A stretch of 36,587 nt of DNA from Candidatus Sabulitectum sp. (lineage in GTDB: Bacteria; Fermentibacterota; Fermentibacteria; Fermentibacterales; JCC-6), in NCBI GenBank assembly GCA_029940175.1, contig JAOZRM010000002.1, positions 1 to 36,587 on the forward strand, read 5' to 3'. A program made the position numbers and the translations under genes. Position 1 is the stretch's first letter, and each line of letters starts with the position of its first letter. Shown here piece by piece: positions 12,028 through 36,016 of the stretch. Under the pieces are notes generated by a model. The model did no database searches. It worked only from the letters and a program-made list of their open reading frames with translations, and had not been told where the DNA came from.

Positions 12028-12034
12028 TGCTGCC

Positions 12035-13816: not shown

Positions 13817-13838
13817 CTGTTTTCTCCTTGCGATGTCA

Positions 13839-14345
13839 TCATGAAGCACCAACAGCACTTTCGGCAATTTTCTTTCCTTTTCTGCGGTACTCTTTAAGTA
13901 TTTTTCGCAGCGATGCAGGAGTAAGTCGGCCATGTGTGTCGTCATTGACCATTATCACCGGAGCCAGTGAACAGCAGCCAATACAGGCAACAGTGAGGAA
14001 TGTGAAGAGACCATCTTCAGACGTGTCCCCGACTTCGACTTCAAGCTCGTCTTCGATCGTATCAATGATAGCTTTGGCACCGGAGACATGGCACGCAGTA
14101 CCGGCACATGCTCTTACCACAAACTTTCCCATTGGTTGAAGTCTGAACTGACTGTAGAAAGTGATGACACCGAAGATGTCGGACTCAGGGATAGCGGTAA
14201 CTCCGGAGATGTAGGTAATGGCTCGTCTGGGTATGTACCCGAAATGCTCCTGGGCAGATTGCAGCAGGGGAATTAGTTCCCCGGGTGCTCCATCGTATTT
14301 CCAGAGCCTGTAGTTGAAACTTTCCTTTTTGGCAGCCGTTTTCAT
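13839..14345 (-). CDS. NuoE/HydC-like thioredoxin-like [2Fe-2S] subunit
   Basis: LIPLLQSAQEHFGYIP...FGVITFYSQF...ACAGTACHVSG...VACIGCCSLAPV is the NuoE-type Cys pattern. I chose the ATG at 14345 (GAAGGGAG upstream); in-frame ATGs at 14357 and 14393 are alternatives. Confidence 0.85.
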   Translation of the reverse strand: MKTAAKKESFNYRLWKYDGAPGELIPLLQSAQEHFGYIPRRAITYISGVTAIPESDIFGVITFYSQFRLQPMGKFVVRACAGTACHVSGAKAIIDTIEDELEVEVGDTSEDGLFTFLTVACIGCCSLAPVIMVNDDTHGRLTPASLRKILKEYRRKGKKIAESAVGAS

Positions 14346-14438
14346 CACTCCCTTCATAATCACCACTGGAACCCCGGGAGGAGATTTCTCCATCCGGGGC
14401 CAGTGGGAATATCAGAAATATTTTATGTTGCTATATCG

Positions 14439-15425
14439 TTAGTCGTCTAAAAGCTTTATTACTTTTGCCTCTCTCACACGGAGAACACCATCGATCTGGC
14501 TCAGCTTCTCGATAATTCTGGGAGTCTTGCCCACAGCGCCATGGCCTGTGATCATTCCCACAAGTTTGGTTCCATTTTCGATAACGTCGCAAACCACAAC
14601 TTCATCAATGAAGAAAACAGTAGTGAAAATCTGCTGGATTGAATCGGGATCAATGTCTACGATGATATAGCTCACGGAGCCTGGTTGTCTTCGTGCTCCG
14701 GCCTGTGCCTCCTGCTTAACAGCTTTTTGATACGTGTCGATGAACTGATCAACATCCCTGTCAAGTTTTGGTCTTTCCACCTGTGACATTGAAAGAACAT
14801 TAATTCCGTCTATTGCTTTTACCGAATCAAATACTTCTTCTATTCCAGCTGCTGATTCCGCCTGAGCCAGAAGAACAACATCAAAGTCGCCCCTGACGGC
14901 GTCGCATGACTGAATACCCGGCATGGAGTAGAGTTTGTCGAAGATCTCCATGCTGTTCTCTGAATCGGTAATTTTGATTGTGAGATAAGCGCTGACGGAT
15001 TCACGCATTCCGTCATCAACCTGCTCGGCACTGGAATCTGTTGCGGTTTTACCCGGTGTCAATTCTTCAAGAGCACTGACCAGCTCAGGTATTTCAAAAG
15101 GTTTATTCAAGAAGCCGGTATTGTACTCGGCCAGGGCGGTCATCATGAGTCGCTCATCACCAAAACCGGTGATCACAAGTACTGGAAGGTCGGGATACTG
15201 ATTCTTTATTACCTTCAGAATCTTCAGTCCATCAATGTCCGGCATGAAGATGTCTGTTATCAGGTAATCGTAAGCGAGTCCTTTGTTTTTGGACTGGTTA
15301 AGTTCGTGGATTGCTGATATTCCATCGGGACATGCCACCACGGAATAATCCTCCTGGGTGAGACCGAAGGTAAGATTCCTGCGAATCTCAGCCTCGTCAT
15401 CTATTATGAGTACTCGACCCTTCAA
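14439..15425 (-). CDS. Response regulator: receiver (REC) domain followed by two AsnC/Lrp-type (RAM) ligand-binding-like domains, with no DNA-binding domain seen
   Basis: REC domain: VLIIDDE...YLITDIFMPDIDG...PVLVITGF...FLNKP. The C-terminal half has two repeats of the AsnC_trans_reg-like pattern: AYLTIKI...MPGIQSCDAVRGDFDVVLLAQAES...AIDGINVLSMSQV and SYIIVDI...IDEVVVCDVIENGTKLVGMI...QIDGVLRVREAKVIKL. Confidence 0.75.
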   Translation of the reverse strand: MKGRVLIIDDEAEIRRNLTFGLTQEDYSVVACPDGISAIHELNQSKNKGLAYDYLITDIFMPDIDGLKILKVIKNQYPDLPVLVITGFGDERLMMTALAEYNTGFLNKPFEIPELVSALEELTPGKTATDSSAEQVDDGMRESVSAYLTIKITDSENSMEIFDKLYSMPGIQSCDAVRGDFDVVLLAQAESAAGIEEVFDSVKAIDGINVLSMSQVERPKLDRDVDQFIDTYQKAVKQEAQAGARRQPGSVSYIIVDIDPDSIQQIFTTVFFIDEVVVCDVIENGTKLVGMITGHGAVGKTPRIIEKLSQIDGVLRVREAKVIKLLDD

Positions 15426-15510: not shown

Positions 15511-16974
15511 TCAACGTACCTCTGCTCTACACAATTCAAGGCCATCTTCAAGATCCGTCCATCTTCCAGACGAAAGGTAGAGGTTCATTGCCCTTGCTGC
15601 TCGCCTGCCGTGACCCATTGCAAGAATCACAGTGGCTGCTCCAAGCACGATATCCCCACCTGCAAAAACTCCGGGAACCGAGGTTTGGCCGGTAACCTCA
15701 TTTACTATTACACCACCCCAGTTTGTTACATCAAGGTCAGGATATGAACTGGGTACCAGAGGGTTGGGGCTGTTGCCTATGGCAACGATCAGAATGTCGG
15801 TTTCCATGATATATTCCGAACCCTCAATTGGAATAGGTCGTCTTCTGCCGGATGCATCAGGCTTTCCCAGCTCCATTTTTATCAGTTCAGCACCAGTAAT
15901 CCATCCTTTGTCATTCCCCACCAGCCGTACGGGATTGTTCAGAAGATGAAATTCAACTCCTTCTTCCCTGGCATGATGGATTTCCTCAAGTCTGGCCGGC
16001 ATCTGTTCCTCAGCCCTTCTGTAGACTATCAGTGATCGTTCTGCGCCCATTCGCAGCGCTGTTCTGGCACAGTCCATTGCTACATTCCCGCCACCTACTG
16101 TTATTACCGTTCTACCTTTGACTATAGGTGTATCAGACTGGGGAAATGTATATGCCTTCATAAGGTTTGCTCTTGTGAGGTATTCATTTGCAGAAAGAAC
16201 TCCTAAAAGATTCTCACCATCAACCCTCATGAATCTCGGCAGTCCGGCACCGGTTCCAATAAAGACTGCATCGTTCTCTTCTACAATCTTTTCTACTGGA
16301 GACGTTTTACCAACGATGAAGTTGTATCTGAACTTGACTCCCAGTTTTTCCAGATAATCAACTTCTGTCTGAACAATGGCTTTTGGAAGTCTGAATTCAG
16401 GTATTCCATAAAGAAGAACTCCACCAGCCTTGTGAAAAGCCTCGTAAACTGTAACATCATGACCGTATTTGATCAGATCTCCCGCAACAGTCAAACCAGC
16501 AGGACCTCCGCCCACGATTGCTACTTTTTTTCCGGTTTTTCTAACCTCAGGCGGTGTGGCGTAAACTCCCTGTTCCCGCTCCCAATCAGCAAGGAACATC
16601 TCCAGTTTGCCTATCATCACTGCTTTAGTCGGATCTTTTTTTGCTTTTCCAATAACGCAGACTGCCTGGCATTGTTCCTCCTGGGGGCAGACTCGACCGC
16701 AGACAGCGGGAAGCAGGTTTCTCTGTTTCAGAACATGTACACCGGTGGAGAAATCTCCCTGCTCAATAGCCTTAATAAAGCCCGGGATATCTATTCCAAC
16801 AGGACACCCTTCGATGCAGAATGGAGTTTTGCACTGAAGACATCTTTGCGCCTCGATCATGGCCATTTCAGGAGTGTAGCCCAGAGGAACTTCTTTCACA
16901 TTGTGAATTCTTTCCTTTGGATCCTGTTCCGGCATAACAGTTGGTGGAATTTTCAGTCTTTCTGCCGGTTTCAT
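15511..16974 (-). CDS. nfnB: NfnB / GltD-like (glutamate synthase small-subunit family) NADPH-FAD-2x[4Fe-4S] oxidoreductase subunit
   Basis: EAQRCLQCKTPFCIEGCPVGIDIP...LPAVCGRVCPQEEQCQAVC, VAIVGGGPAGLTVAGDL...GGVLLYGIPEFRLP and TVGGGNVAMDCARTA are all present. The ATG at 16974 forms an ATGA overlap with the nfnA-like stop; the track start at 17013 is rejected. Confidence 0.85.
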   Translation of the reverse strand: MKPAERLKIPPTVMPEQDPKERIHNVKEVPLGYTPEMAMIEAQRCLQCKTPFCIEGCPVGIDIPGFIKAIEQGDFSTGVHVLKQRNLLPAVCGRVCPQEEQCQAVCVIGKAKKDPTKAVMIGKLEMFLADWEREQGVYATPPEVRKTGKKVAIVGGGPAGLTVAGDLIKYGHDVTVYEAFHKAGGVLLYGIPEFRLPKAIVQTEVDYLEKLGVKFRYNFIVGKTSPVEKIVEENDAVFIGTGAGLPRFMRVDGENLLGVLSANEYLTRANLMKAYTFPQSDTPIVKGRTVITVGGGNVAMDCARTALRMGAERSLIVYRRAEEQMPARLEEIHHAREEGVEFHLLNNPVRLVGNDKGWITGAELIKMELGKPDASGRRRPIPIEGSEYIMETDILIVAIGNSPNPLVPSSYPDLDVTNWGGVIVNEVTGQTSVPGVFAGGDIVLGAATVILAMGHGRRAARAMNLYLSSGRWTDLEDGLELCRAEVR

Positions 16975-17840
16975 TTTGCCCCCTTTTGCTTCAATGATGC
17001 TTCCAGCCTGCAACCGGTTTCCTCCGAGTAGTGTTCAAGAGCTACTCTTTCGTAACTTTTGTAAGTGTTGAGACGTGCCATCATCTCGTCAAAATCTACC
17101 TCATGACCGTCAAACTCCGGGCCGTCCACGCAGGCGAATTTTATTTTACCACCTACTGTTACCCTGCAGCCGCCGCACATACCGGTTCCATCCACCATTA
17201 TGGGATTCAAACTGACTATGGTAGGAATTCCAAGTTTCTTTGTAAGAATACAGACGAATTTCATCATTATGGGAGGTCCCATACAAATGCACTGGTCGAA
17301 CTTCCCGCCATTCTCCACCAGTTTACTTATGGCGTCTGTTACAAGTCCCTTATTTCCTTTGGAACCATCATCTGTGGTAATTATGAGGTCGTCGCTCACA
17401 TCACGCATTCTATCCTCTAGGATCAGCAGGTTTTCCGACCTTGCTCCAAGAACGGAGGTTACTCTGTTACCGATCTCTTTCATGGCTTTTGCAACAGGGT
17501 AGAGCGGGGCAGTGCCTATGCCGCCCCCAACGCAGAGTACATGGCCAACCTTTTCTATGTGAGTTGGTTCCCCCAGAGGCCCGGCTATGTCTGGAATTGA
17601 GTCTCCAACTTCCATCTGAGCCAACTGAAGAGTTGTCTTTCCCACCGATTGAATAATTAGAGTAATGCTGCCTTCGTCACGATCCACATCCGCCAGGGTA
17701 ATCGGTATCCTCTCTCCCTCTTCACTTATGCGCATCAGGACAAACTGCCCGGGCTTTCGGTAGGCTGCCACATCCGGAGCGTACAACCTGTACAGAGTAA
17801 TGTCAGGGCCGAGAGTTTCTTTGTAGAGGATTACGTGCAT
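16971..17840 (-). CDS. nfnA: NfnA / SudB-like FAD-[2Fe-2S] ferredoxin-NADP reductase-type subunit (PyrK-like fold)
   Basis: RKPGQFVLMRI...ERIPITLADVD (FAD-binding barrel), CVGGGIGTAPLYPVAKA (NAD-binding) and the C-terminal MVDGTGMCGGCRV...ACVDGPEF (2Fe-2S). GGAGGG lies upstream of the ATG. Confidence 0.85.
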   Translation of the reverse strand: MHVILYKETLGPDITLYRLYAPDVAAYRKPGQFVLMRISEEGERIPITLADVDRDEGSITLIIQSVGKTTLQLAQMEVGDSIPDIAGPLGEPTHIEKVGHVLCVGGGIGTAPLYPVAKAMKEIGNRVTSVLGARSENLLILEDRMRDVSDDLIITTDDGSKGNKGLVTDAISKLVENGGKFDQCICMGPPIMMKFVCILTKKLGIPTIVSLNPIMVDGTGMCGGCRVTVGGKIKFACVDGPEFDGHEVDFDEMMARLNTYKSYERVALEHYSEETGCRLEASLKQKGAK

Positions 17841-25482: not shown

Positions 25483-28455
25483 TCAATTCCTCAGCATTGC
25501 CCCTTTACCAGTTCTTCCATCAACCATTACCTTTATTGGTTCATCCACAGAAACATGTCTGGTAAATTCTGTTTCTGAGGTGGCTTCGAGAGAATTCAAC
25601 CATTCCCAGTTGATCATTGAACCTGAGCGGTTGTGAGGTACTGTGAAGTAGACCACTCCCAGCGAAGTCATGTTCTGGAAGAAATGCGAACCCTGAGAAG
25701 GATCGATGTTCATGTTCTTCTGGCTTGCTTCTACAATAACTTTTGCTCCGCAGATCTGGCTCCAGGTTACCGGTATACCCAGCCAGGAATCTGACGATCC
25801 CCATCTGCCCGGACCGATGAGAATGAAGGGTTTTTCTGCTTCGAAAAGAATTTTGTTTATTGCTTCCACTTCCTTTACAATATCCTTTGTTTTTGAAGCG
25901 GTGAAGCTATCCGGTTTAATGTAAACAACGTCCCGTATGCTCTGGATAGTTCCGTTTCCCAGTGCTGTATCTGTTTTGCAAAGAAGTTTCTCGTTGTCAA
26001 AAGTTTCCGGATCAATATCAACAAGGTCATTGTTAACCACCATTGGTCTGATCTGCAGCAGACTGAAATGTGCAGGAAGTGCTCTTTTTACACCGAGAGT
26101 TACTGCAAACTCGATCTCCACCGGGCAACCCATGGATTTTTCCCCCATTTTAAGCAGATAGTCGCTTATTGGAGCCAGGGGGAAAACATCGTTCTTCAGT
26201 ACATGCGCAAAACTGACCACCCTGGGTCCCTGTCTGGTTATACCATCCATGACCCTGTCATTAGGTGCATCATAAGTTGAAGCAAGATATTCAAGAGTGC
26301 CATCTTTTTCAGAGGTGTTAAGATCATGTGAGGTAATGTACTGATCTTCATCAAGTTTCGATCCCCAGTTATTATTGTCCATCTGTACTGCAAAGAATTG
26401 CTTCTGTGAATTGTCCATCATAGCTTTTACAGTTCCAAATTGCGGAAGTACTCTGGGGTACTTAGGAGTGAATCGCAAAGACATGCCACCGTCCACTATT
26501 GCCTTACCAAGCCCCAGAGCAACGTTAACAACACCATCCTCTGGTTTTGCAGAACCTGCAGGATAGAAGTCGTAAGATCTGCCCACACCGGAGAAATGAG
26601 GATAAAACAGATCTCCATGCTGGCGCCCAACCACCTGCTGAAGAAGCACTGCCATTTTTTCCTCTTCTACTCTGTGATTGGTTGCTCTTATATAGGATTT
26701 TGCTGATTGCATGAATGTTGATGCGTACACAAACTTTATTGCGCTTGAAAGCTGTTTGAATCTTACAGTGAGATCTCTTGAATTATTGGGAAGCATCTTC
26801 GTTGCATAGATGCCTGCAAATGGCTGGTACATGGCATCTTCCAGCAAGCTGGATGATCTTATTGCAAGGGGAGTTGTTACTGACCTGGCGTAATCTCTGA
26901 TGTCACCGAGGATAGTAGCTGGAAGGGATGCATTCTGGAAAGCTCTTTGTATTCTATTGTCATCTTCGCATTCAATAGCAAATTGATGGAGCTTGTTAAT
27001 TTTCATGAATTCATCGAAGAACTCTGTGGTAATGATCACTGTGTTGGGAACAGAAACTGATACTTTCTTAAATGCGCCTTCCTTAAGATTAGCCACGAGA
27101 ACTCTGTCTATGAAAGCAAGACCCCTTCCCTTGCCTCCCATAGAACCATTACCCAGGCGGCTGAACATCAGGTCTTCATCGTGGAAAGATCTGCTGTAAG
27201 GAACAACATAACCACGCCTCTGGTCTGCCTTCCATGTTTTGAAAGCTTCCAGTAGTGCATGCTTGACCTCTTCTGCCGAGCAGTTGTTCAGCTTGCACTC
27301 GTCTATGTCCTCGGCAAGTTCCAGTTCGGTTTGAATCTTGAGCCATCTCGAGATCCTGCCTTTCTGCCAGTTTGTGTATATGGCTTCTGCAGGAAGCTTA
27401 TCCAGTGCGATTCCAAGTTCCCTGATATTTGATACTTTTCTTATTACTTTGCCGTTTTGATCTTTGAACAGGATATCTCCAAAATCCAGAAAATTCACAA
27501 GAACATCGCTGAATTCTGACATAAGTGTTTCAGAATTTTTGCTGATGTAGCCAACATTCATTGTTCTTGCGATGTCTTCACCGTCATGCTCGCTGGTCTG
27601 GAGAACAATTGGAATGCTGGGATTCTTTTCCCGGATCTTTTCTATGAGGTTCACGCCGGCTTTTTTGTCATGAGTACCCAGGTGGTGGAATCTCATGTCT
27701 GTAATTACTCCCACAAGAGAACTGCTGAATTGCTCCAGAGCATATTCTGCTTCTTCCATGTTCACAGCAAGAAGCAGTTTTGTTCTTGCTTTGCCCTTCT
27801 GCTTCCTCATGGTCTGGGATTTCATTCTCTCTAAAACCTCGCGGGATCTCAAATGGATCTCCTGGATTCCCAGGTGCAGGTATTTGGAGTAAAAGAGTAC
27901 ATCGTCCTCAACCAGTAGAACACAGGGTGCATTCAGCACTCCACAATCGTGTGGAGCATTGTGGGCATCCTCAGTCAGTTGAATGATTCCCTGAATGATC
28001 TCTCCTGTACCCATCCAATTGAAAAGTCCATAGGGTATCATGTCCGGGCTACTACTGCTTACCTTTCTAAGTTCTTCTCGGTTATGGGTGAGAACAGTGA
28101 CATTCAGTCCCGGTTGAATTGCATGAGCTTTCTCTGTAAAGTCATGGAATGAGATATTTTCGCCGGTGGACATACATATGACCAATTCAAAGTGGGTGTT
28201 TTCTTTATCGCTAAGCATATTGAGGGCAGTTGTTGCGTCTGAGACCTGAGTGATTACCGGGGCTTTGCCGAAGTCACCTGCAGAATGGGCAGCTCCCAGA
28301 ATATCTTCCAGCATTCCGTCTTCTTCAACGGTGTAGTAATCATAAAGACTGCAGAGAAGCATCACATTCTGTACTCTGAACTTATTCAGGTCTTTTAGAA
28401 GGAAATCAGTTCTCCGGAGTTGAAGCTGTCCACTAAGTTGATCTGGAGAGAACAT
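25483..28455 (-). CDS. Response-regulator-fused PEP/pyruvate-binding (PPDK_N ATP-grasp) domain protein, 990 aa
   Basis: There is a degenerate receiver-like domain, then a canonical REC (VLLVEDD ... VGVITDMRF ... IVLQTS ... GYISK). The PPDK_N motifs follow: GNGSMGGKGRGLAFI, LAIRSSSLLEDA..QPFAGIYAT and VEIEFAV...LLQIRPM. The C-terminal module carries ILIGPGRWGSSDSWLGIPV and DPSQGSHFFQNM. No GG.TSH swivel motif was seen. Confidence 0.8.
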   Translation of the reverse strand: MFSPDQLSGQLQLRRTDFLLKDLNKFRVQNVMLLCSLYDYYTVEEDGMLEDILGAAHSAGDFGKAPVITQVSDATTALNMLSDKENTHFELVICMSTGENISFHDFTEKAHAIQPGLNVTVLTHNREELRKVSSSSPDMIPYGLFNWMGTGEIIQGIIQLTEDAHNAPHDCGVLNAPCVLLVEDDVLFYSKYLHLGIQEIHLRSREVLERMKSQTMRKQKGKARTKLLLAVNMEEAEYALEQFSSSLVGVITDMRFHHLGTHDKKAGVNLIEKIREKNPSIPIVLQTSEHDGEDIARTMNVGYISKNSETLMSEFSDVLVNFLDFGDILFKDQNGKVIRKVSNIRELGIALDKLPAEAIYTNWQKGRISRWLKIQTELELAEDIDECKLNNCSAEEVKHALLEAFKTWKADQRRGYVVPYSRSFHDEDLMFSRLGNGSMGGKGRGLAFIDRVLVANLKEGAFKKVSVSVPNTVIITTEFFDEFMKINKLHQFAIECEDDNRIQRAFQNASLPATILGDIRDYARSVTTPLAIRSSSLLEDAMYQPFAGIYATKMLPNNSRDLTVRFKQLSSAIKFVYASTFMQSAKSYIRATNHRVEEEKMAVLLQQVVGRQHGDLFYPHFSGVGRSYDFYPAGSAKPEDGVVNVALGLGKAIVDGGMSLRFTPKYPRVLPQFGTVKAMMDNSQKQFFAVQMDNNNWGSKLDEDQYITSHDLNTSEKDGTLEYLASTYDAPNDRVMDGITRQGPRVVSFAHVLKNDVFPLAPISDYLLKMGEKSMGCPVEIEFAVTLGVKRALPAHFSLLQIRPMVVNNDLVDIDPETFDNEKLLCKTDTALGNGTIQSIRDVVYIKPDSFTASKTKDIVKEVEAINKILFEAEKPFILIGPGRWGSSDSWLGIPVTWSQICGAKVIVEASQKNMNIDPSQGSHFFQNMTSLGVVYFTVPHNRSGSMINWEWLNSLEATSETEFTRHVSVDEPIKVMVDGRTGKGAMLRN

Positions 28456-28677
28456 ATTTTACTACCACCTCCGGTTAGTTCTTTAATCAATAAAGGCAAT
28501 AAGTACTATTTAGAATTCTGAACAAGAAGCAATTATGAACATCATGTCAGCCAATAGTCAAGTTGAGGATTTCCCTATTGACAGGGGTAAGGGTGTGGCA
28601 GTAGTCTACTCCATCCGAGTGATCGTTTTCTCGGGATTTTTTGTTTGTTTACCAAATTCTTGAAAAGGAGAGTGAGA

Positions 28678-30030
28678 ATGCTTGAGGAACTCTACCAGAA
28701 AGTAATCCAGAGGGATCCTGCCCAGCCTGAATTTCACCAGGCAGTCCAGGAGGTTCTTGAATCTCTTGAAGTGGTACTTGAAAAGCACCCTGAGTACAGA
28801 AGTGCAAGAATCCCGGAAAGAATTGTGGAGCCGGAGCGTGTTATCATGTTCCGTGTACCATGGGTAAAAGATAACGGCGAAATTCAGGTCAATCGCGGAT
28901 TCCGCATTGAAATGAACAGTGCTATCGGACCCTACAAGGGCGGTCTTCGTTTCCACCCTTCCGTTAACCTTGGAATCCTCAAGTTCCTGGCTTTCGAGCA
29001 GGTATTCAAGAATGCTCTCACCACTATCCCTATGGGTGGCGGTAAAGGTGGATCTGACTTTGATCCCAAGGGCAAATCAGATCTTGAAGTTATGCGTTTC
29101 TGCCAGAGCTTCATGAGTGAACTTTTCCGTCATATCGGGCCAAACACAGATATTCCTGCAGGTGATATTGGTGTTGGTGGAAGAGAAATCGGTTTCATGT
29201 TCGGTCAGTACAAAAAGCTTCGTAACGAGTGGACTGGCGTTCTTACAGGCAAGGGTCGCGAGTACGGTGGAAGCCGTATCAGACCCGAGGCTACAGGTTA
29301 TGGCGCTGTATACTTTGGTGAGGAAATGCTTAAGACCAGAGGCGACAGTTACAAAGACAAGATCTGTCTTGTGTCCGGTTCCGGTAATGTTGCCCAGTAT
29401 GCTACCCAGAAGCTTACAGAGCTCGGTGGAAAAGTTGTTACACTTTCCGATTCCAGCGGCTGTATCTATGACGAAGAGGGCATCGACGCTGAGAAGCTTG
29501 CATATGTTATGGATCTCAAGAATGCTCGTAGAGGTCGCATAAGCGAATATGCCGAGAAGTATCCAGGTGCAGTTTACACTGCTGTAGACGGTTCTCTCGA
29601 TTACAATCCTCTCTGGGCCTACAAGGCCGACTGTGCATTCCCAAGTGCCACTCAGAACGAGATCAGCGCAAAGGATGCTCAGACAATGGTTAACAACGGT
29701 GTTTTCCTTGTTTCTGAAGGTGCCAACATGCCCACAGTTCCTGAGGGTGTTAACATCTTTATCGACAACAAAGTTCTTTACGGACCAGGCAAAGCTGCCA
29801 ATGCTGGTGGCGTAGCCACATCAGGTCTTGAGATGGCTCAGAATGCCATATTCTCAAGCTGGAGCCGTGAGGAAGTTGATACAAAGCTTCACAACATCAT
29901 GATCAGTATTCACAGGCAGGCATTTGAAGCTGCTGAATACTATGGCGATCCAGGGAACTATGTTCTTGGTGCCAATGCAGCCGGTTTCCGTAAGGTTGCC
30001 GATGCAATGCTCGCTCAGGGCGTTGTGTAG
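28678..30030 (+). CDS. gdhA: NADP-type glutamate dehydrogenase (GdhA-like, 450 aa)
   Basis: ATG at 28678 follows AAAGGAG. EPERVIMFRVPWVKDNGEIQVNRGFRIEMNSAIGPYKGGLRFHPSVNLGILKFLAFEQVFKNALTTIPMGGGKGGSDFDPKGKSD is the hallmark GdhA sequence. The track TTG at 28645 is rejected. Confidence 0.9.
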   Translation: MLEELYQKVIQRDPAQPEFHQAVQEVLESLEVVLEKHPEYRSARIPERIVEPERVIMFRVPWVKDNGEIQVNRGFRIEMNSAIGPYKGGLRFHPSVNLGILKFLAFEQVFKNALTTIPMGGGKGGSDFDPKGKSDLEVMRFCQSFMSELFRHIGPNTDIPAGDIGVGGREIGFMFGQYKKLRNEWTGVLTGKGREYGGSRIRPEATGYGAVYFGEEMLKTRGDSYKDKICLVSGSGNVAQYATQKLTELGGKVVTLSDSSGCIYDEEGIDAEKLAYVMDLKNARRGRISEYAEKYPGAVYTAVDGSLDYNPLWAYKADCAFPSATQNEISAKDAQTMVNNGVFLVSEGANMPTVPEGVNIFIDNKVLYGPGKAANAGGVATSGLEMAQNAIFSSWSREEVDTKLHNIMISIHRQAFEAAEYYGDPGNYVLGANAAGFRKVADAMLAQGVV

Positions 30031-30047
30031 TCACTTAGTTATACAGA

Positions 30048-30083
30048 GGAATCCCCTGCACATTAGTGCGGGGGATTCTTTTT
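30048..30083 (+). terminator. Intrinsic terminator after gdhA
   Basis: GGAATCCCCTGCAC, loop ATTA, then GTGCGGGGGATTC followed by TTTTT. The stem is about 13 bp with one G-U pair. Confidence 0.75.
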
Positions 30084-30107
30084 AGCAGCATTTGAGAAGA
30101 ATGCCTG

Positions 30108-32453
30108 TTAATCGGTTAAGAAAGCTACAGCCTCGTCAGAATCTCCGTTCAAAATAATAGAAAGAGAAGAATCAGCTTTTATTTCTGAAACTCTAATAAC
30201 TTTTAAGATGTTTTCAAAACTTTCAGTTCCCGTCACCATATCGGTGAGAAGATTTCTATAATTGAAATAGATTTCCTCTTTGAATACTACATCCTCGTCG
30301 TCCGGATAGAGTGGAAGATACCTGATGTCTGCTTCAACTAGATCCTGGAAGAAATGGGTTCCAAACGAAAGATCCGGCACCTGTCCCTTCTTCATCCTTG
30401 CAACTTCTATCAGCATCGCTGTGTTGTTGATGTCGCTGTAACCAACATGCACACCAAGTTTAATGTCACCCTTGCTTCCCCATCTTCCTGGTCCAATGAG
30501 AACAAATTTCTTAGCAGGCAGTATTTTGTTCAGTTTGCCGATTATCTGACCGATCTCCAGCAATTTCTCCCGGCTTTCAACGTTGTCATACTGGTCGCCA
30601 TCCACGTAAACCAGATATTCAATTCCGTGGCAGGCACCTGACATGATGTACCTGTTTGCCGTGAAGAGAATTGAATCTTTTTCGATACCTGAAGGGATTG
30701 TGGTGTCAACATTTCCTTTTCCCACGCTTTGAGGTCTGCATTGAAGAAGGTAGGGTGTGTGAATATCCGGTCCGTAAGCGAACTCAATATCCACGGGCAG
30801 ACCTATCTCGTCTTCAAGAATGTTTAATACGGTTTTGAAGAAAAGAGGAACGGGACTTTTTTCCAGAAGATTGTGGAAGGTTATTATGGTATCTTTTTTC
30901 TGAATGTTCAGCATTGAACCTGGTGAGAGCTGAACGTTTCCTTCTTCATAAAGAGAAACAAGATACGGAAGGCAGGGTATTTTTGCACCGTATTCCTTGA
31001 TCATTTTTTCGGTACCAACTGTCTCAAGACATCCTTTTTCAAGATTCACTACGTCCATGTTCTTTTGAGCGTATCTAATTAGTTCATCGGTGGTGACATT
31101 AATGCGGAGTTTGGGCTGACCCGGGCTCATCAGTACAGGGAAATCCTGCCCGGTTCTGTCAACGGCTCTTGTACCAAGTCCGGCTACAAGTCTGACTATG
31201 CCGTCTTCCGACTTGATCCTTGGTGACCAGCGATAGTCGTTTCTGCTGAATGCAACTCCGGCAAATGGCGGGAAGTAGTACTTTCCGATTCTTGTGCCCA
31301 CAACCTCCTGGATTAGAATCCCCATCTCTTCGTTGAAGTCAAGTAATCCTCTTTCCCGCCTGTACTCAATCGGATCAGGGCCGAATATGCTTGCATAGAT
31401 TTCCACTACAGCATCTACAAGAGCCTCAAGCCTCTGCTGTCGAGTACCCTGATTTGCCACGAAGAGACTTTTGTATTTCCCTGCAAAAGCAGCGCCTGTG
31501 CTGTCTTCCAGAAGACTTGAAGACCGGACAACGAGTGGTGTTGTACCGAAGTAATCCAGAGCATGCTCCAGACCGGTCAAGACACTGTAAGGCATTATTG
31601 AGTGCTTGAACACCTGCTCAAGAAGATGGTATTCCTGGCGAATCTCATCCTGACGGGCGTATTTAATAGCCATCATTTCCTCGAGGGCGTTGTGACTTAT
31701 GAATTCAAGAACAGAATCGGATGAGATGAACCATGTTTTGGGAACCTTCAGGTTTCTGAGAACAGAATAGGATTTCTTGTAGGTGTTGAGAATTTTTTCT
31801 GCTCTGAAAAGACCAGCTGCCTTGCCACCCACCTTACCGTTACCATTGTATGGGCCAATGGTATGTTTAATAACATAAGAAAAGTCATCGATGCTGACGT
31901 GTTTTCTTATTGTGCTTATGAAATTCAAATCATCAGTAAAAAGTCGTCTTGTAAGGCCTACAATGATATTCTCCCGGTCACGGGCTTCCATCTTTTTACT
32001 TCGTTTAGGCAGCATCTCGTATTTTTCCAGAGTTTCTCTGAGAATGCCCAGAGGAACATCTCTTCTGCCTGCAGCCACAGAAAGAAAGCGAATTTTTTCG
32101 TGGCGGAGCCACCGGTGAAGTGCCATGGTTATCTCATCCGGTGAAAGAACTTCCTCTGCCACTCGAAACACTTGAGTGGTAATATCCTCCAGAACCTTGT
32201 GGTCCATTCTGGGAGCCGGTTGATTCTCACCGTACAGATCTCCTGTTTCCACTGCATCCACCTGTTTGGGAAGCAGTTCCTCCATGATCTTTGAGATTTT
32301 CTCGACTTTTCTCCTGAAGAGGTAATTCAGCATTTTTCTGCTCAGGCGCCCAAGCAGTTCAGGGTCTGTTTCACTTAGAAGTCTGAGTATTATCTTCCAT
32401 TCCGGTTTATCTGTGCCGGTTGTAGCCGTACTATTGCTGATCAGTGGTGACAT
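30108..32453 (-). CDS. PEP/pyruvate-binding (PPDK_N ATP-grasp) domain protein, 781 aa, paralogous in architecture to 25483-28455
   Basis: An unassigned helical N-terminus of about 200 aa comes first. Then GNGKVGGKAAGLFRA, LVVRSSSLLEDSTGAAFAGKYKS and VDIEFAYG...YLLQCRPQ. The C-terminal module carries VLIGPGRWGSKGDIKLGVHV and DLSFGTHFFQDL. No GG.TSH swivel motif was seen. Confidence 0.8.
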   Translation of the reverse strand: MSPLISNSTATTGTDKPEWKIILRLLSETDPELLGRLSRKMLNYLFRRKVEKISKIMEELLPKQVDAVETGDLYGENQPAPRMDHKVLEDITTQVFRVAEEVLSPDEITMALHRWLRHEKIRFLSVAAGRRDVPLGILRETLEKYEMLPKRSKKMEARDRENIIVGLTRRLFTDDLNFISTIRKHVSIDDFSYVIKHTIGPYNGNGKVGGKAAGLFRAEKILNTYKKSYSVLRNLKVPKTWFISSDSVLEFISHNALEEMMAIKYARQDEIRQEYHLLEQVFKHSIMPYSVLTGLEHALDYFGTTPLVVRSSSLLEDSTGAAFAGKYKSLFVANQGTRQQRLEALVDAVVEIYASIFGPDPIEYRRERGLLDFNEEMGILIQEVVGTRIGKYYFPPFAGVAFSRNDYRWSPRIKSEDGIVRLVAGLGTRAVDRTGQDFPVLMSPGQPKLRINVTTDELIRYAQKNMDVVNLEKGCLETVGTEKMIKEYGAKIPCLPYLVSLYEEGNVQLSPGSMLNIQKKDTIITFHNLLEKSPVPLFFKTVLNILEDEIGLPVDIEFAYGPDIHTPYLLQCRPQSVGKGNVDTTIPSGIEKDSILFTANRYIMSGACHGIEYLVYVDGDQYDNVESREKLLEIGQIIGKLNKILPAKKFVLIGPGRWGSKGDIKLGVHVGYSDINNTAMLIEVARMKKGQVPDLSFGTHFFQDLVEADIRYLPLYPDDEDVVFKEEIYFNYRNLLTDMVTGTESFENILKVIRVSEIKADSSLSIILNGDSDEAVAFLTD

Positions 32454-32524: not shown

Positions 32525-32560
32525 AAAAAAAAAGGACCGGGGTGACTAGCACCCCGATCC
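32525..32560 (-). terminator. Intrinsic terminator after the second GDH gene
   Basis: The minus strand reads GGATCGGGGTG, loop CTAGT, then CACCCCGGTCC followed by TTTTTTTTT. Confidence 0.8.
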
Positions 32561-32577: not shown

Positions 32578-33861
32578 CTACACGAGTCCGCGAAGTCGGG
32601 CGGCGTTAGCAACTCTGTCGATAGCAATCATGTAGGCTGCATCACGCATGTAGACTGACTGACTCTCGGCCAGATCAGCTACTGCATGGAATGCAGTTGT
32701 CATCTTTGTATCCAGCTTGGAGAGAACTTCGTCCTTCTCCCAGTAGTAATTCATGTTGTTCTGAACCTGCTCGAAGTAGGAGCATGTAACTCCTCCTGCG
32801 TTGCATAGGAAATCTGGAATATTGAAAATTCCTCTTTCGCTGAGAACAGCATCGGCTTCAGGAGTAGTGGGGCCGTTTGCTCCTTCTGCAATAACCTTGA
32901 CTCTTGAGTGGATTTTGCCAACTGTATCAGCGTTTATCTGGTTCTCAAGGGCTCCAGGAAGAAGAACATCAGCTTCAGTTTCAATCCAGGCATCTCCAGA
33001 AAGCTGCTCGTAACCTGCTGCAATTGCCTTTACTGCATTAAGAGTTCCGAATCTGTCTGTTATGCTCAGGACGAATTCAAGATCAATGCCATCCATCTTG
33101 CGGTAGGTGTAAGCCCTCATATCCTTCTGATCCCAGCAGGAAATACAGACAACTTTACCGCCATACTGAATAAAGAGATCGGCTGCGTACTGTGTAACAT
33201 TGCCGAATCCCTGACATGCCATTGCAGCACCCTTTATGTCTATTCCGAGACGCTTCAGAGCTTCTCTGACTGTATAGATAGCACCGTAACCTGTTGCTTC
33301 AGTTCTTCCAAGTGAGCCCCCGCTGCCAACAGGCTTGCCGGTGATAACACCTGGGAACTTTCCTCCCATTAAAGTCTCGTACTCATCCATCATCCAGAGC
33401 ATGTGCTGAGGTGTTGTCATTACATCCGGAGCTGGAACATCCTGCACAGGGCCGATATTCTTCCAGACGTTGCGGATCCAGCCACGGCAAATCTGTTCCT
33501 GCTCACGCATGGAAAGTTCATGAGGATCACAGATGACGCCTCCCTTTCCACCACCGAGAGGAATATCTACAACTGCAGTTTTCCATGTCATCCATGTAGC
33601 GAGAGCCTTGACTGTACTGATGGTTTCGTCAGGGTGAAATCTGATTCCGCCCTTGCATGGACCGCGAACATCACTGTGCTGTACTCTGAAACCACGGAAG
33701 ACCTGAACAGTACCATCATCCATGTGAACGGGAATAGTGAAATGATATTCTCTCATGGGTTCACGGAGAAATGCTCTTGCACCTGCGTCGAGATCGAGTG
33801 TTTCAGCTACCTGATCGAACTGATCCTGAGCCATCTTGAATGCATCGAAACCTTTGGACAT
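32578..33861 (-). CDS. Glu/Leu/Phe/Val dehydrogenase family, short hexameric-type glutamate dehydrogenase (427 aa)
   Basis: ATG at 33861 follows GGTAGGAGG. FRGFRVQHSDVRGPCKGGIRFHPDETISTVKALATWMTWKTAVVDIPLGGGKGGVICDP and GFGNVTQYAA are present. The track start at 33936 is rejected. Confidence 0.9.
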   Translation of the reverse strand: MSKGFDAFKMAQDQFDQVAETLDLDAGARAFLREPMREYHFTIPVHMDDGTVQVFRGFRVQHSDVRGPCKGGIRFHPDETISTVKALATWMTWKTAVVDIPLGGGKGGVICDPHELSMREQEQICRGWIRNVWKNIGPVQDVPAPDVMTTPQHMLWMMDEYETLMGGKFPGVITGKPVGSGGSLGRTEATGYGAIYTVREALKRLGIDIKGAAMACQGFGNVTQYAADLFIQYGGKVVCISCWDQKDMRAYTYRKMDGIDLEFVLSITDRFGTLNAVKAIAAGYEQLSGDAWIETEADVLLPGALENQINADTVGKIHSRVKVIAEGANGPTTPEADAVLSERGIFNIPDFLCNAGGVTCSYFEQVQNNMNYYWEKDEVLSKLDTKMTTAFHAVADLAESQSVYMRDAAYMIAIDRVANAARLRGLV

Positions 33862-34204
33862 TTCTGACCTCCTACCGGCGGGGTGCCGATAAAAAATAAG
33901 AAGACAATGCTTCTTAGGTATTAATATAGCCGGCACAGTTGAGCCGGTTGCCGGTAATATATGACAGTTAATAATTCATACCAACTCATTGAATTGAAAG
34001 CGCCCCTGTACGTCTTTAGTGTACGTACTGCAGTATATCAGGCATTGGATATTGCAGCGTATATCACCACCCACTCAATGATGAAGAGATGCTGTTCTTC
34101 TTGAAGTCAAAGAATAACTATCTCTGATTGTGTGGTCTGATTCTATGTTGCCAGTTAGAAAGAATCTCTTTGTTTTTCAATCAATTCTGTACCAGAATAG
34201 TATC

Positions 34205-34280: not shown

Positions 34281-34934
34281 ATGGAGATTTCATTGATTGC
34301 AATTAAGGTTTCAGAGAAATCCATCAGGAGATTGAGTCATTACGCCCGATGTCTCAGGCTTGCCAGAATCAGGGGCGAAGTAATAATGACTTCCCAGCAA
34401 CTTGCGACAAATTGCGGAATTTCTTCAGCTGCCGTACGCAGAGATCTGTCTATTTACGGGGAATTCGGCAAGCAGGGATCAGGTTACAAGGTTGATGATC
34501 TTCTGATCAATATTGAGGAAATCCTTGGTACTACTGATCCACCACCTGTGATCATTGTTGGAGCTGGCAGCATCGGATGTGCTTTATTGATTTCCGGTCT
34601 TGCCGGAACCGGCGGTTATACCTACGATTCCATTTACGACAATGATCCTGCAAAAATAGGTAAGCAGTGCGGGAATAAGCAGGTAAGATCCATTGACGAG
34701 ATATCTGAGGTCATAAGGAAGCACAAGGAGATCATTGCTGTGATCGCTGTTTCCGGTGGAGCTGGCCAGGATGCTCTGCAGATGCTTGTTGAAGCTGGCT
34801 GCAAGGCTGTTCTCAGTTTTACACTTGAGCCCTTGAATGCTCCGGAGGATGTTGAAGTACGATATATAGAAGTTTCTACAGAACTGGATGTTCTCACACA
34901 TTCAATGAGAAGAAAGGAGCGTGCTGACCAATGA
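34281..34934 (+). CDS. rex: Redox-sensing transcriptional repressor Rex
   Basis: KSIRRLSHYARCLRL...MTSQQLATNCGISSAAVRRDLSIYGEFGKQGSGYKVDDL is the Rex wHTH. VIIVGAGSIGCALL is the Rossmann NADH-binding motif. Confidence 0.85.
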   Translation: MEISLIAIKVSEKSIRRLSHYARCLRLARIRGEVIMTSQQLATNCGISSAAVRRDLSIYGEFGKQGSGYKVDDLLINIEEILGTTDPPPVIIVGAGSIGCALLISGLAGTGGYTYDSIYDNDPAKIGKQCGNKQVRSIDEISEVIRKHKEIIAVIAVSGGAGQDALQMLVEAGCKAVLSFTLEPLNAPEDVEVRYIEVSTELDVLTHSMRRKERADQ

Positions 34935-35428
34935 GTAGAACACCAGCTGTGATATCAACTTCGATTGTCTTGCTGGGAATCTGGTTCAGCTTAACACTTA
35001 GCACAGATATTCAAGAAATAACCCTGGGAGTGGTTGTGAGCCTTATTGTGGCCATTGCAACACATGGAGCACTTACCGGAAACCTTTTCACTCTCCTTAA
35101 TCCCAGGAAAGGTCTGGCGGCAATCAACTATGTTTTTTACTTCCTGGGTCAGATGGTGAAAGCCAATATTGATGTATTTCTGAGAATTTTCAGACCTGTC
35201 ATCCCGATCAAGCCCGGTATCGTCAAGGCCAGGTTGACTATTAAGAGTGAGCGGGCTAAAGCAATAGTGGCGAATTCCATAACCCTGACCCCGGGTACCA
35301 TCACAATTGACATCATTGGAGACGAAATTTTCGTACACTGGGTTTTCCTGCCCAGTGGGGACGTACATGCTGAAACTCAAGCTATGGTGGACAGTTTCGC
35401 AGGAAGATTGGAGAAGATCTTTGAGTAG
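34931..35428 (+). CDS. mrpE: Mrp/Mnh antiporter-type subunit E (MbhA-like)
   Basis: ATGA overlap with the rex stop. Two N-terminal TM helices. VANSITLTPGTITIDI..DEIFVHW is the MrpE signature. Confidence 0.8.
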   Translation: MSRTPAVISTSIVLLGIWFSLTLSTDIQEITLGVVVSLIVAIATHGALTGNLFTLLNPRKGLAAINYVFYFLGQMVKANIDVFLRIFRPVIPIKPGIVKARLTIKSERAKAIVANSITLTPGTITIDIIGDEIFVHWVFLPSGDVHAETQAMVDSFAGRLEKIFE

Positions 35429-35684
35429 CACATTCCTGATTATTCTCTTTGTGCTGATCGGTGGCGGACTCTTCCTTTCCTTTCTACGCCTGATTTTGGG
35501 CGGGAAAGCTACAGACAGGGCTGTAGCACTGGATACTACCACTTTGATCACAACAGGTTTTCTTGTTCTTGTGGCGTTTCTTCAAGGAAGGTCTATGCTG
35601 CTTGACGTAGCTCTTGTTTATTCTGTTCTCTCTTTCCTTGGTGTTCTGGCAATTGCCAGGTATCTGGACGGGGGGTTGAGATGA
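35421..35684 (+). CDS. mrpF: Mrp/Mnh subunit F (MbhB-like)
   Basis: Three TM helices: RLILGGKATDRAVALDTTTLI...LLDVALVYSVLSFLGVLAIARYL. The TTG at 35421 is the likely start (GTG at 35451 is an alternative). The part of the track ORF upstream of 35421 overlaps mrpE and is rejected. Confidence 0.7.
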   Translation: MSSTFLIILFVLIGGGLFLSFLRLILGGKATDRAVALDTTTLITTGFLVLVAFLQGRSMLLDVALVYSVLSFLGVLAIARYLDGGLR

Positions 35685-36016
35685 GTTTCATGGATATACT
35701 TGCTCACGTATTTACCGGCCTGGGTGCTCTGGTTCTTTTTGCCAGCGGTCTTGGTGTATTCCGGATGCCTGATGTTTTTAATAAGATGCATGCAGGAACC
35801 AAGGCTACCACCCTGGGGTCTGTACTTTTTCTGATAGGTCTTGGGCTTTTTGAACCATCCTGGATGCCCAAATTGCTTCTGATTGTTCTTTTCATAATTC
35901 TTACAAACCCTGTATCAAGCCATGCACTTGCCCGTGCTGCATACAATGAGCCATCGGAGAAACCTGATAATCTTCTCATTGATGATCTTGAAGAGAGCAA
36001 AGGAGGTGCCCAGTGA
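35681..36016 (+). CDS. mrpG: Mrp/Mnh subunit G (MbhC-like)
   Basis: ATGA overlap with mrpF. GVFRMPDVFNKMHAGTKATTLGSVLFLIG is the MnhG signature. Confidence 0.8.
   Translation: MSFMDILAHVFTGLGALVLFASGLGVFRMPDVFNKMHAGTKATTLGSVLFLIGLGLFEPSWMPKLLLIVLFIILTNPVSSHALARAAYNEPSEKPDNLLIDDLEESKGGAQ

Follow-up and report, generated by a model that had tools for sequence, protein, structure and literature searches.

Why should two large proteins with a dikinase-type ATP-grasp domain be encoded beside two genes for glutamate dehydrogenase (GDH), an enzyme that stands at the junction of carbon and nitrogen metabolism? The question is raised by a 36,587-nucleotide stretch of DNA from Candidatus Sabulitectum sp. 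(contig JAOZRM010000002.1, positions 1 to 36,587), hereafter called the window, in which proteins of 990 and 781 amino acids (aa), each with a PPDK_N domain, are found next to the GDH gene gdhA and to a second GDH gene, gdh2. In this study we surveyed relatives of both proteins across genomes and metagenomes, and we propose, with a probability of roughly 0.45, that they represent a widespread and uncharacterised GDH-linked system, which would exert ATP-dependent covalent control of the cognate GDH through a phospho-histidine on a shared C-terminal module, with a receiver (REC) domain serving as input on the 990-aa protein. The features at issue are the following, in coordinates of the window:

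25483..28455, minus strand: gene of the 990-aa REC-fused dikinase-like protein (990-type), an open reading frame (ORF), partner of the gdhA-type GDH.
28456..28677, no strand: divergent intergenic region between the 990 gene and gdhA, 222 bp assuming that gdhA starts at ATG 28678.
28678..30030, plus strand: gdhA, an NADP-type (family I) GDH, assigned with NCBIfam PRK09414 and Pfam.
30108..32453, minus strand: gene of the 781-aa dikinase-like protein (781-type), an ORF, partner of the second GDH.
32534..32560, minus strand: terminator-like hairpin between gdh2 and the 781 gene, a consensus match only.
32578..33861, minus strand: gdh2, a second GDH of the archaeal, Thermococcus-like hexameric type, assigned with Pfam and a PDB match.

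The gdhA and 781 genes are convergent and 77 bp apart, and gdh2, which shares the strand of the 781 gene, precedes it by 124 bp; the gdh2 ORF as listed spans 32578-33936, its likely start being Met26 of that ORF. These coordinates agree with a first-pass annotation made from the sequence of the window alone, which had described the 222-bp divergent gap (given the gdhA start above), the convergence of the 781 gene with gdhA and the adjacent second GDH. That annotation had also presented the two dikinase-like proteins as bracketing gdhA as one unit, and this is the part of its interpretation that gave way, whereas the reading of the proteins as something other than phosphoenolpyruvate (PEP) synthases, the link to GDH and the conservation of the REC residues all stood. 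The window is instead two type-specific pairs side by side, the 990 gene with gdhA and gdh2 with the 781 gene. The gdhA product scores 739 bits against the PRK09414 cut-off of 536 and matches ELFV_dehydrog and ELFV_dehydrog_N in Pfam; gdh2 reaches 497.6 bits with NCBIfam GdhA_Arch, under the cut-off of 750, and its best PDB match is the GDH 1euz (E 7e-132), aligned over the full length, comparison with the PDB marking it as an ordinary GDH with no special domain.

Is the neighbourhood with GDH a peculiarity of this genome? For the 781 type, one genome per species was scanned with an alignment of the shared module, which gave 594 confirmed loci; the context counts rest on the best 80 of them, all 80 being 781-type, and neighbouring genes were found by tblastn with the four proteins of the window. 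A locus was considered fully flanked when at least 3 kb was available on each side, and linked to GDH when a GDH gene lay within 3 kb. The best 80 loci belong to phyla that include Aminicenantes, Ignavibacteria, Acidobacteriota, Calditrichia, Gemmatimonadota, Myxococcota, Bacillota, Planctomycetota and Thermoplasmata archaea. GDH is linked in 35 of 40 fully flanked loci and, where it is within 3 kb, it is of the gdh2 type, upstream and on the same strand in 52 of 58 loci. Among the 77 anchored loci, 33 have the order gdh2, a short (~570 aa) REC-less 990-like paralog and then the 781-type gene, 21 have gdh2 followed by the 781-type gene, and four have gdh2, a full-length REC-990 and then the 781-type gene; eight are without GDH and 11 run off the contig. 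The cluster layout starts with gdh2 in 58/66 evaluable loci. A 781-type gene of Ozemobacteraceae (P0052, L003-L005) has no GDH within 8 kb and overlaps an upstream SBF-like transporter gene by 4 bp; this exception shows that GDH linkage is not universal.

The 990 type was surveyed by a metagenome scan with a 990-type alignment, which gave 80 loci. Of the fully flanked loci, 21 of 37 are linked to GDH by the 3-kb criterion, and the GDH hits are mostly gdhA-type, directly upstream and on the same strand (29/41), five being divergent as in the window. Furthermore, three Bacteroides chromosomes carry a REC-PPDK_N gene of ~3 kb between two GDH genes, one of which is an immediate divergent or convergent neighbour that it adjoins. 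The closest layout elsewhere (L089) has gdh2, 990, 781 and gdhA in a row. As an internal control, no unrelated family besides the dikinase-like paralogs is present in more than 37/80 (781-type) or 12/80 (990-type) loci, and the chance of GDH adjacency, estimated roughly from one to a few GDH genes per genome, is well below 1%. The GDH linkage is real and far above chance, and the link suggested by the first-pass annotation is decisively borne out by an enrichment around both types.

The two paralogs are also associated with each other, being adjacent (781 with a 990-like paralog) in 43/77 loci, and natural fusions of both exist as single 1500-1650-aa proteins (P0241-P0243). Since they are fused into single proteins in some lineages, the paralogs appear functionally linked. 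A fusion with GDH was sought in the long representatives P0328, P0360 and P0345, in which no GDH domain was found. Because the pairing is type-specific, 990 with gdhA and 781 with gdh2, a protein target fits better than a small molecule shared by both.

What chemistry could such proteins perform? Pfam reveals one significant domain in each, PPDK_N (PF01326), with 138.6 bits for the 990 and 169.8 bits for the 781 protein, and the two are homologous across the ATP-grasp domain and the C-terminal module (29% identity over 529 aa, E 1e-47). The motifs that had been quoted for two PPDK_N ATP-grasp proteins of these lengths are all present in the ORFs, the pair showing GGKGRG/GGKAAG, RSSSLLED, FAGIY/FAGKY, IEFA...LLQ.RP, [IV]LIGPGRWGS and G[ST]HFFQ. 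The nucleotide-site residues K211, R310, E557, Q571 and R573 are invariant in 45 homologs of the 781 type, as are K442, R533, E780/E782, Q801 and R803 in 43 homologs of the 990 type (residue numbers are the true ones; the alignments A2, A3 and A5 and the full-length model, made without the initial Met, run one lower). Indeed GGK, RSS..ED, E.EF and Q.RP, the nucleotide-site motifs of E. coli PpsA, are invariant in both families, and we take the same motifs to line the nucleotide site of PPDK. As these motifs are conserved, both the 990 and the 781 protein look, from their sequences, like active ATP-using enzymes. At the structural level, Foldseek relates the ATP-grasp part of the 781 model to rifampin phosphotransferase (RPH; 5hv1-3, E 2e-12), HpeI (9goj, E 1.5e-10), PpsA (2ols) and pyruvate phosphate dikinase (PPDK; 1kbl).

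The rest of a PEP synthase is missing. Pfam finds neither PEP-utilizers nor PEP-utilizers_C in either protein, and there is no TIM barrel in the proteins or in any downstream ORF, both proteins stopping ~190-210 aa past the ATP-grasp domain with ORF ends 77 bp from gdhA (781) and 52 bp from the next ORF. The NCBIfam equivalogs for PEP synthase, RPH and PigC/RedH give 20-53 bits against cut-offs of 598-1350 and cover the ATP-grasp part only; the best scores with the PEP synthase/PPDK equivalogs are 46-49 bits (cut-offs 598-883), and the RPH model NF041857 gives 23.1 and 31.2 bits (cut-off 999), with the ATP-grasp domain alone covered. The motif GG.[TS]SH occurs in none of 240 + 149 (389) relatives, and a canonical PpsA with swivel domain, sought as an internal comparison, was found neither in the related loci nor in the window. 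Scores so far under the cut-offs, together with the lack of swivel domain and TIM barrel, support the conclusion that the 990 and 781 proteins are not PEP synthases. On this conclusion, and on the absence of the GG.TSH swivel motif and of the TIM barrel, Pfam, NCBIfam and the scan of the 389 relatives all side with the first-pass annotation.

In place of these domains, both proteins share a ~190-aa module with GxGRWGS, an invariant Glu and S-x-G-[ST]-H-F-F. When 35 diverse modules of the two families are aligned (A1), GxGRWG, a Gly, a strand-end Glu, S-x-G-x-H-F-F and a Tyr are invariant, and both signature motifs are present in 233/240 close relatives and 134/149 distant ones. A profile search of 1.84 billion cluster representatives (50% identity) retrieved 2554 proteins with the module, 788 of them at E <1e-30, and among the listed full-length proteins the module is the C-terminal end, after PPDK_N. 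Modelled alone with AlphaFold2, the 781 module reaches a predicted local distance difference test (pLDDT) score of 89.5 and a predicted template modelling (pTM) score of 0.88; in this model the His (His700 in 781, His924 in 990) sits in the first turn of a helix, and the Gly-rich loop follows a strand. The position in the chain after Q.RP, the order of strand, Gly-loop and strand, the His at the helix start and the likeness of G[ST]H to TSH had prompted the idea that the module is a diverged PEP-utilizer swivel domain. This idea is unsupported: PF00391 matches none of the 35 module members at E up to 10, the module profile finds no dikinase among the PDB sequences, and neither hhalign nor Foldseek is in favour of it. 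The description of the shared module as unassigned was upheld by Pfam, PDB-profile, swivel and Foldseek searches. Judging by its conserved residues and its model, the module may be a new phospho-carrier or catalytic fold grafted onto a dikinase ATP-grasp domain.

The 990 protein places two receiver-like domains in front of this core, and its domains are, from N to C-terminal:

28006..28383, minus strand: degenerate receiver-like domain, ~aa 25-150, from a profile match to PDB response regulators.
27526..27930, minus strand: receiver domain, ~aa 176-310, with E183 D184, D253, T287 S288 and K306.
27166..27525, minus strand: linker, ~aa 311-430, DUF5752-like in some homologs.
26026..27144, minus strand: PPDK_N ATP-grasp domain, aa 438-810, Pfam 138.6 bits, E 4e-40.
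25486..26058, minus strand: shared C-terminal module, aa 800-990, with GPGRWGS at 881-887 and His924 at nt 25684-25686.

When a profile built from 12 homologs is compared with the PDB, the first domain hits response regulators (profile positions 42-135, E 9e-6), and this receiver is degenerate because a Met replaces the acceptor Asp (ELVICMS). Across 43 homologs, with identities as low as 35%, the second receiver keeps E183/D184, D253, T287/S288 and K306 either without exception or in 90% or more of the sequences, so that the succession of a degenerate receiver and a canonical REC domain noticed at first pass is retained. PF00072 matches 10/12 homologs of the 990 receiver (best E 1.5e-13) and gives 19.5-22.7 bits with the 990 protein of the window itself, under the Pfam cut-off of 30.2. 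From its conserved residues, the second REC domain looks functional. The linker is matched by PF19027 (DUF5752) in 3/12 homologs (best E 5.4e-7) and in P0360, and shows no PF19027 match in the 990 protein of the window itself. Full-length homologs of the 990 type number more than 1600, are about 985-1000 aa long and include proteins of Bacteroides. At one genome locus (L047:12874-15979, minus strand) the 990 type looks split into a 481-aa REC-like and linker protein and a divergent 556-aa protein, whose C-terminal end is module-like (VPGRLGS ... GTHFLTN) and which the Pfam PPDK_N model fails to recognise.

The 781 protein, for which more than 7600 homologs were counted and a full-length AlphaFold2 model with a pLDDT of 78.3 was obtained, has three parts:

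31854..32453, minus strand: all-helical N-terminal domain, aa 1-200, helices 17-195 in the full-length AlphaFold2 model.
30708..31835, minus strand: PPDK_N ATP-grasp domain, aa 207-582, Pfam 169.8 bits, E 1e-49.
30111..30746, minus strand: shared C-terminal module, aa 570-781, with GPGRWGS at 654-660 and His700 at nt 30354-30356.

The N-terminal 200 aa, singled out at first pass as a segment to be modelled, thus prove all-helical in the model, with no Pfam match and no family match. Many 781-type relatives are longer, ~900-1070 aa, and carry an extra C-terminal Pol-beta nucleotidyltransferase domain (FGSTKNATAGPGSDIDLLVH; PF01909, 30.8 bits), as in L047:7853-11068 (plus strand) and in the same region of L008, L010, L016, L051, L071 and L073; the 781-type ORF runs on into this domain in 55/68 evaluable genome loci. 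Some of these relatives also have an extra ~150-aa N-terminal domain with the motif ERAKELNCLY and no Pfam match. Moreover, a calcineurin-like metallophosphoesterase (PF00149, ~285 aa) is encoded just downstream of the 781-type gene in 29/60 evaluable loci, mostly convergently; an example is L047:11068-11925 (minus strand), and 36 other genome loci have one. The metallophosphoesterase may be the reverse enzyme of a modification cycle. None of these three features of the relatives (nucleotidyltransferase extension, additional N-terminal domain, metallophosphoesterase) turned up when the window was searched for them.

How could these parts work together? By analogy with the dikinases, the architecture suggests a phospho-His relay on the module: a dikinase ATP-grasp domain leads into a module whose invariant His, next to a Gly-rich loop, opens a helix. 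The ATP-grasp domain would move phosphate (or pyrophosphate) from ATP to the module His, and the phospho-module would hand the group to the neighbouring GDH, or otherwise drive an ATP-dependent change in it, thereby switching its activity. An unlinked histidine kinase would gate the transfer in the 990 copy by phosphorylating Asp253. In relatives elsewhere, the fused nucleotidyltransferase and the neighbouring metallophosphoesterase would supply a second modifying activity and the reverse reaction. In both proteins the new module takes the place of the usual swivel and substrate domains at the same position of the chain. That the acceptor is the GDH protein is suggested by the type-specific pairing and by the accessories, as REC, Pol-beta nucleotidyltransferase and metallophosphoesterase are typical of covalent-modification cycles. 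In a wider form, which we put forward tentatively, these proteins would be a new and ancient class of GDH-dedicated ATP-dependent modifiers or activators, present in many anaerobic bacterial phyla, in Bacteroides and in Thermoplasmata, which use a phospho-His carrier fold unseen so far, in some cases with a nucleotidyltransferase and a phosphoesterase, and turn GDH on and off according to nitrogen status.

Several observations weigh against covalent control of GDH. About 12% of the 781-type loci and about 40% of the 990-type loci have no nearby GDH, and gene adjacency is equally compatible with a metabolic partner and with a regulator of GDH. Both GDHs of the window are ordinary in sequence and have no extra domain that would mark them as targets. 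When the module is set against six canonical swivel domains drawn from PDB hits, hhalign gives a probability of 0.6%, and a Foldseek search of the PDB with the module model finds no fold match (best E 0.14, template modelling score <0.25). In the full-length 781 model, pLDDT is below 50 over the stretch that runs from the Gly-rich loop to the His, so that the position of the module relative to the ATP site is unreadable from the model. Between gdh2 and the 781 gene stands the hairpin at 32534-32560, which has an 11-bp stem containing eight GC pairs and a T run after it; these two genes may not be strictly co-transcribed in the window, though they form a same-strand cluster in most genomes. Finally, in agreement with the first pass, no histidine kinase is found among the scanned ORFs of the window, several small ORFs having been left unscanned, and no kinase recurs as a neighbour at the other loci.

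The best surviving alternative, which we consider unlikely while taking it seriously, is a small-molecule dikinase or phosphotransferase at the glutamate/2-oxoglutarate node, in which GDH would be a pathway neighbour and the module a substrate or phospho-carrier domain. In one variant, ATP would activate 2-oxoglutarate much as pyruvate is turned into PEP, and reductive amination would thereby be drawn forward when ammonia is low; in another, glutamate or a derivative would be phosphorylated. The characterised PPDK_N enzymes among the structural neighbours (PpsA, PPDK, RPH and HpeI) all have small molecules as phosphate acceptors, it is typical for pathway enzymes to share an operon with a dehydrogenase, and the catalytic motifs are intact in both paralogs. 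In addition, Bacteroides assimilates ammonia via GDH, and several of the genomes with these loci are annotated as members of lineages known as anaerobic amino-acid fermenters. However, the proteins have no TIM barrel or other recognisable small-molecule domain, a type-specific pairing with two GDH classes would be unneeded if both acted on one metabolite, and REC, nucleotidyltransferase and phosphoesterase are accessories more typical of regulatory cycles. A protein-level effect would also be indicated by older work on Bacteroides. In a study attributed to Baggio and Morrison (1996), the GdhA of B. thetaiotaomicron was reportedly inactive in E. coli unless a ~3-kb segment adjacent to gdhA was provided in trans; if this reported dependence of GDH activity in extracts on neighbouring DNA is right, it would speak against a small-molecule enzyme. 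A reversible inactivation of Bacteroides GDH in vivo is likewise said to have been reported. BT1971, first considered as the locus tag of the B. thetaiotaomicron gene, was set aside, as it designates a catalase.

A non-covalent role is harder to maintain. The proteins would then be ATP-binding, and perhaps 2-oxoglutarate- or glutamate-binding, allosteric subunits or assembly factors of the GDH hexamer, without phosphate transfer, and the His would be structural or ligand-binding. Their large multi-domain build, the helical N-terminal domain and the fusion or adjacency of the paralogs, which suggests a hetero-complex, are in keeping with such a sensor or scaffold, and GDHs are known to take regulatory partner subunits, such as Thermus GdhA/GdhB with an APRT homolog. 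Yet the dikinase ATP-grasp motifs and the Gly-rich loop, Glu and His of the module are invariant over hundreds of diverged sequences, as expected of an active enzyme, and we regard this explanation as rather improbable. Finally, that these are ordinary PEP synthase, PPDK or RPH-type enzymes, mis-split or diverged and incidentally beside GDH, is suggested by public annotations ('phosphoenolpyruvate synthase', 'pyruvate, water dikinase', 'PEP/pyruvate-binding domain-containing protein') and by an ATP-grasp domain clearly of the dikinase class, and is nonetheless contradicted so plainly by the equivalog scores, the missing swivel domain and TIM barrel, the missing GG.TSH motif and the GDH adjacency in many phyla (35/40 and 21/37 loci) that we give it hardly any weight.

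Covalent control of GDH by a dikinase-like protein can be set against known systems. With PEP synthase (PpsA) and PPDK the 990 and 781 proteins share an N-terminal PPDK_N domain with GGK, RSS..ED, E.EF/W and Q.RP, and a His-containing domain right after Q.RP; in contrast, they have no swivel domain and no PEP-utilizers_C TIM barrel, and they possess extra N-termini (REC-REC-linker or helical domain) and a linkage to GDH genes. Two of the three features that define PEP synthase/PPDK are thus missing from them, as is the swivel feature of RPH. RPH and the two-subunit phenol-type dikinases (phenylphosphate synthase, HpeHI) provide the best structural matches for the ATP-grasp domain and show that a PPDK_N enzyme can do without a TIM barrel and phosphorylate something other than pyruvate. 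These enzymes keep the canonical swivel His domain, and the swivel domain of RPH was indeed matched by a PpsA swivel query, whereas the 990/781 module shows no detectable relation to it.

As a functional analogy only, AceK, the kinase/phosphatase of isocitrate dehydrogenase, GlnE/GlnD, the adenylyl/uridylyl-transferases of the glutamine synthetase system, and PDRP, the regulatory protein of PPDK, are likewise large dedicated proteins that act on, or are encoded beside, one branch-point enzyme of carbon or nitrogen metabolism. GlnE/GlnD have in common with many 781-type relatives a Pol-beta nucleotidyltransferase domain, fused in these relatives, which also have a phosphoesterase as a frequent neighbour. 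No relation in sequence or fold was found with any of these systems, the proteins of the window have neither the nucleotidyltransferase domain nor the phosphoesterase neighbour, and an action of the 990 and 781 proteins on GDH is proposed by analogy. Response regulators with an enzymatic output resemble the 990 type in that a receiver with acidic pocket, acceptor Asp, Thr/Ser and Lys precedes an enzyme domain; the 990 type differs by its second, degenerate REC domain in front and by the lack of a linked cognate kinase. We know of no described REC output of PPDK_N type, and a literature search found neither such an output nor any account of the family or of dikinase-like proteins linked to GDH. 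Both proteins belong to the PPDK_N ATP-grasp superfamily, in which they combine a dikinase-type ATP-grasp domain with a new C-terminal module and a linkage to GDH.

The surroundings of the two gene pairs comprise further redox and regulatory genes. In the 222-bp divergent region a sigma-70-like site for the 990 gene is present at 28561-28532 (10/12 matches), sigma-70-like sites being no more numerous in this region than in shuffles. Directly upstream of gdh2, on the opposite strand, genes at 34281-36016 (plus strand) encode first a Rex-like redox repressor (Put_DNA-bind_N + CoA_binding) and then subunits E and G of an Mrp/Mnh Na+/H+ antiporter. At 15511-17840 (minus strand) a gene pair encodes a GltD/NfnB-like protein (Fer4_20 + Pyr_redox_2) and an NfnA-like protein (DHODB_Fe-S_bind + NAD_binding_1), which together probably make up either an NADPH-ferredoxin oxidoreductase or a glutamate synthase of the small-subunit type; close to the GDH cluster, 7/80 genome loci also have a GltD-like ORF. 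The GltD/NfnB-like gene is adjoined by the gene at 14439-15425 (minus strand), whose product, the sole other REC protein among the scanned ORFs of the window, has an AsnC/Lrp-type ligand-binding domain joined, unusually, to a canonical receiver (86 bits) and could be an amino-acid-responsive regulator. Three genes at 8362-14393 (minus strand) encode a NuoE-like protein, a NuoF-like protein and a large Fe-S protein of 1221 aa that fuses 2Fe-2S, GltD-like flavoprotein, 4Fe-4S and molybdopterin-oxidoreductase domains, a cluster that looks like an electron-bifurcating formate dehydrogenase or hydrogenase-type complex.

What would ATP-dependent covalent control of GDH mean for these organisms? If true, a central enzyme would have a regulatory system of a new kind, and nitrogen control would gain a layer that ranks with the glutamine synthetase adenylylation cascade or AceK and matters for the physiology of gut Bacteroides, where it would explain the trans-acting gene reportedly needed for GdhA activity and the reported reversible inactivation. 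The module is of interest to enzymology in its own right, being confidently modelled and strongly conserved with no structural relative in the PDB. Thousands of database entries that at present bear the label 'PEP synthase' or 'PEP/pyruvate-binding protein' would have to be annotated anew.

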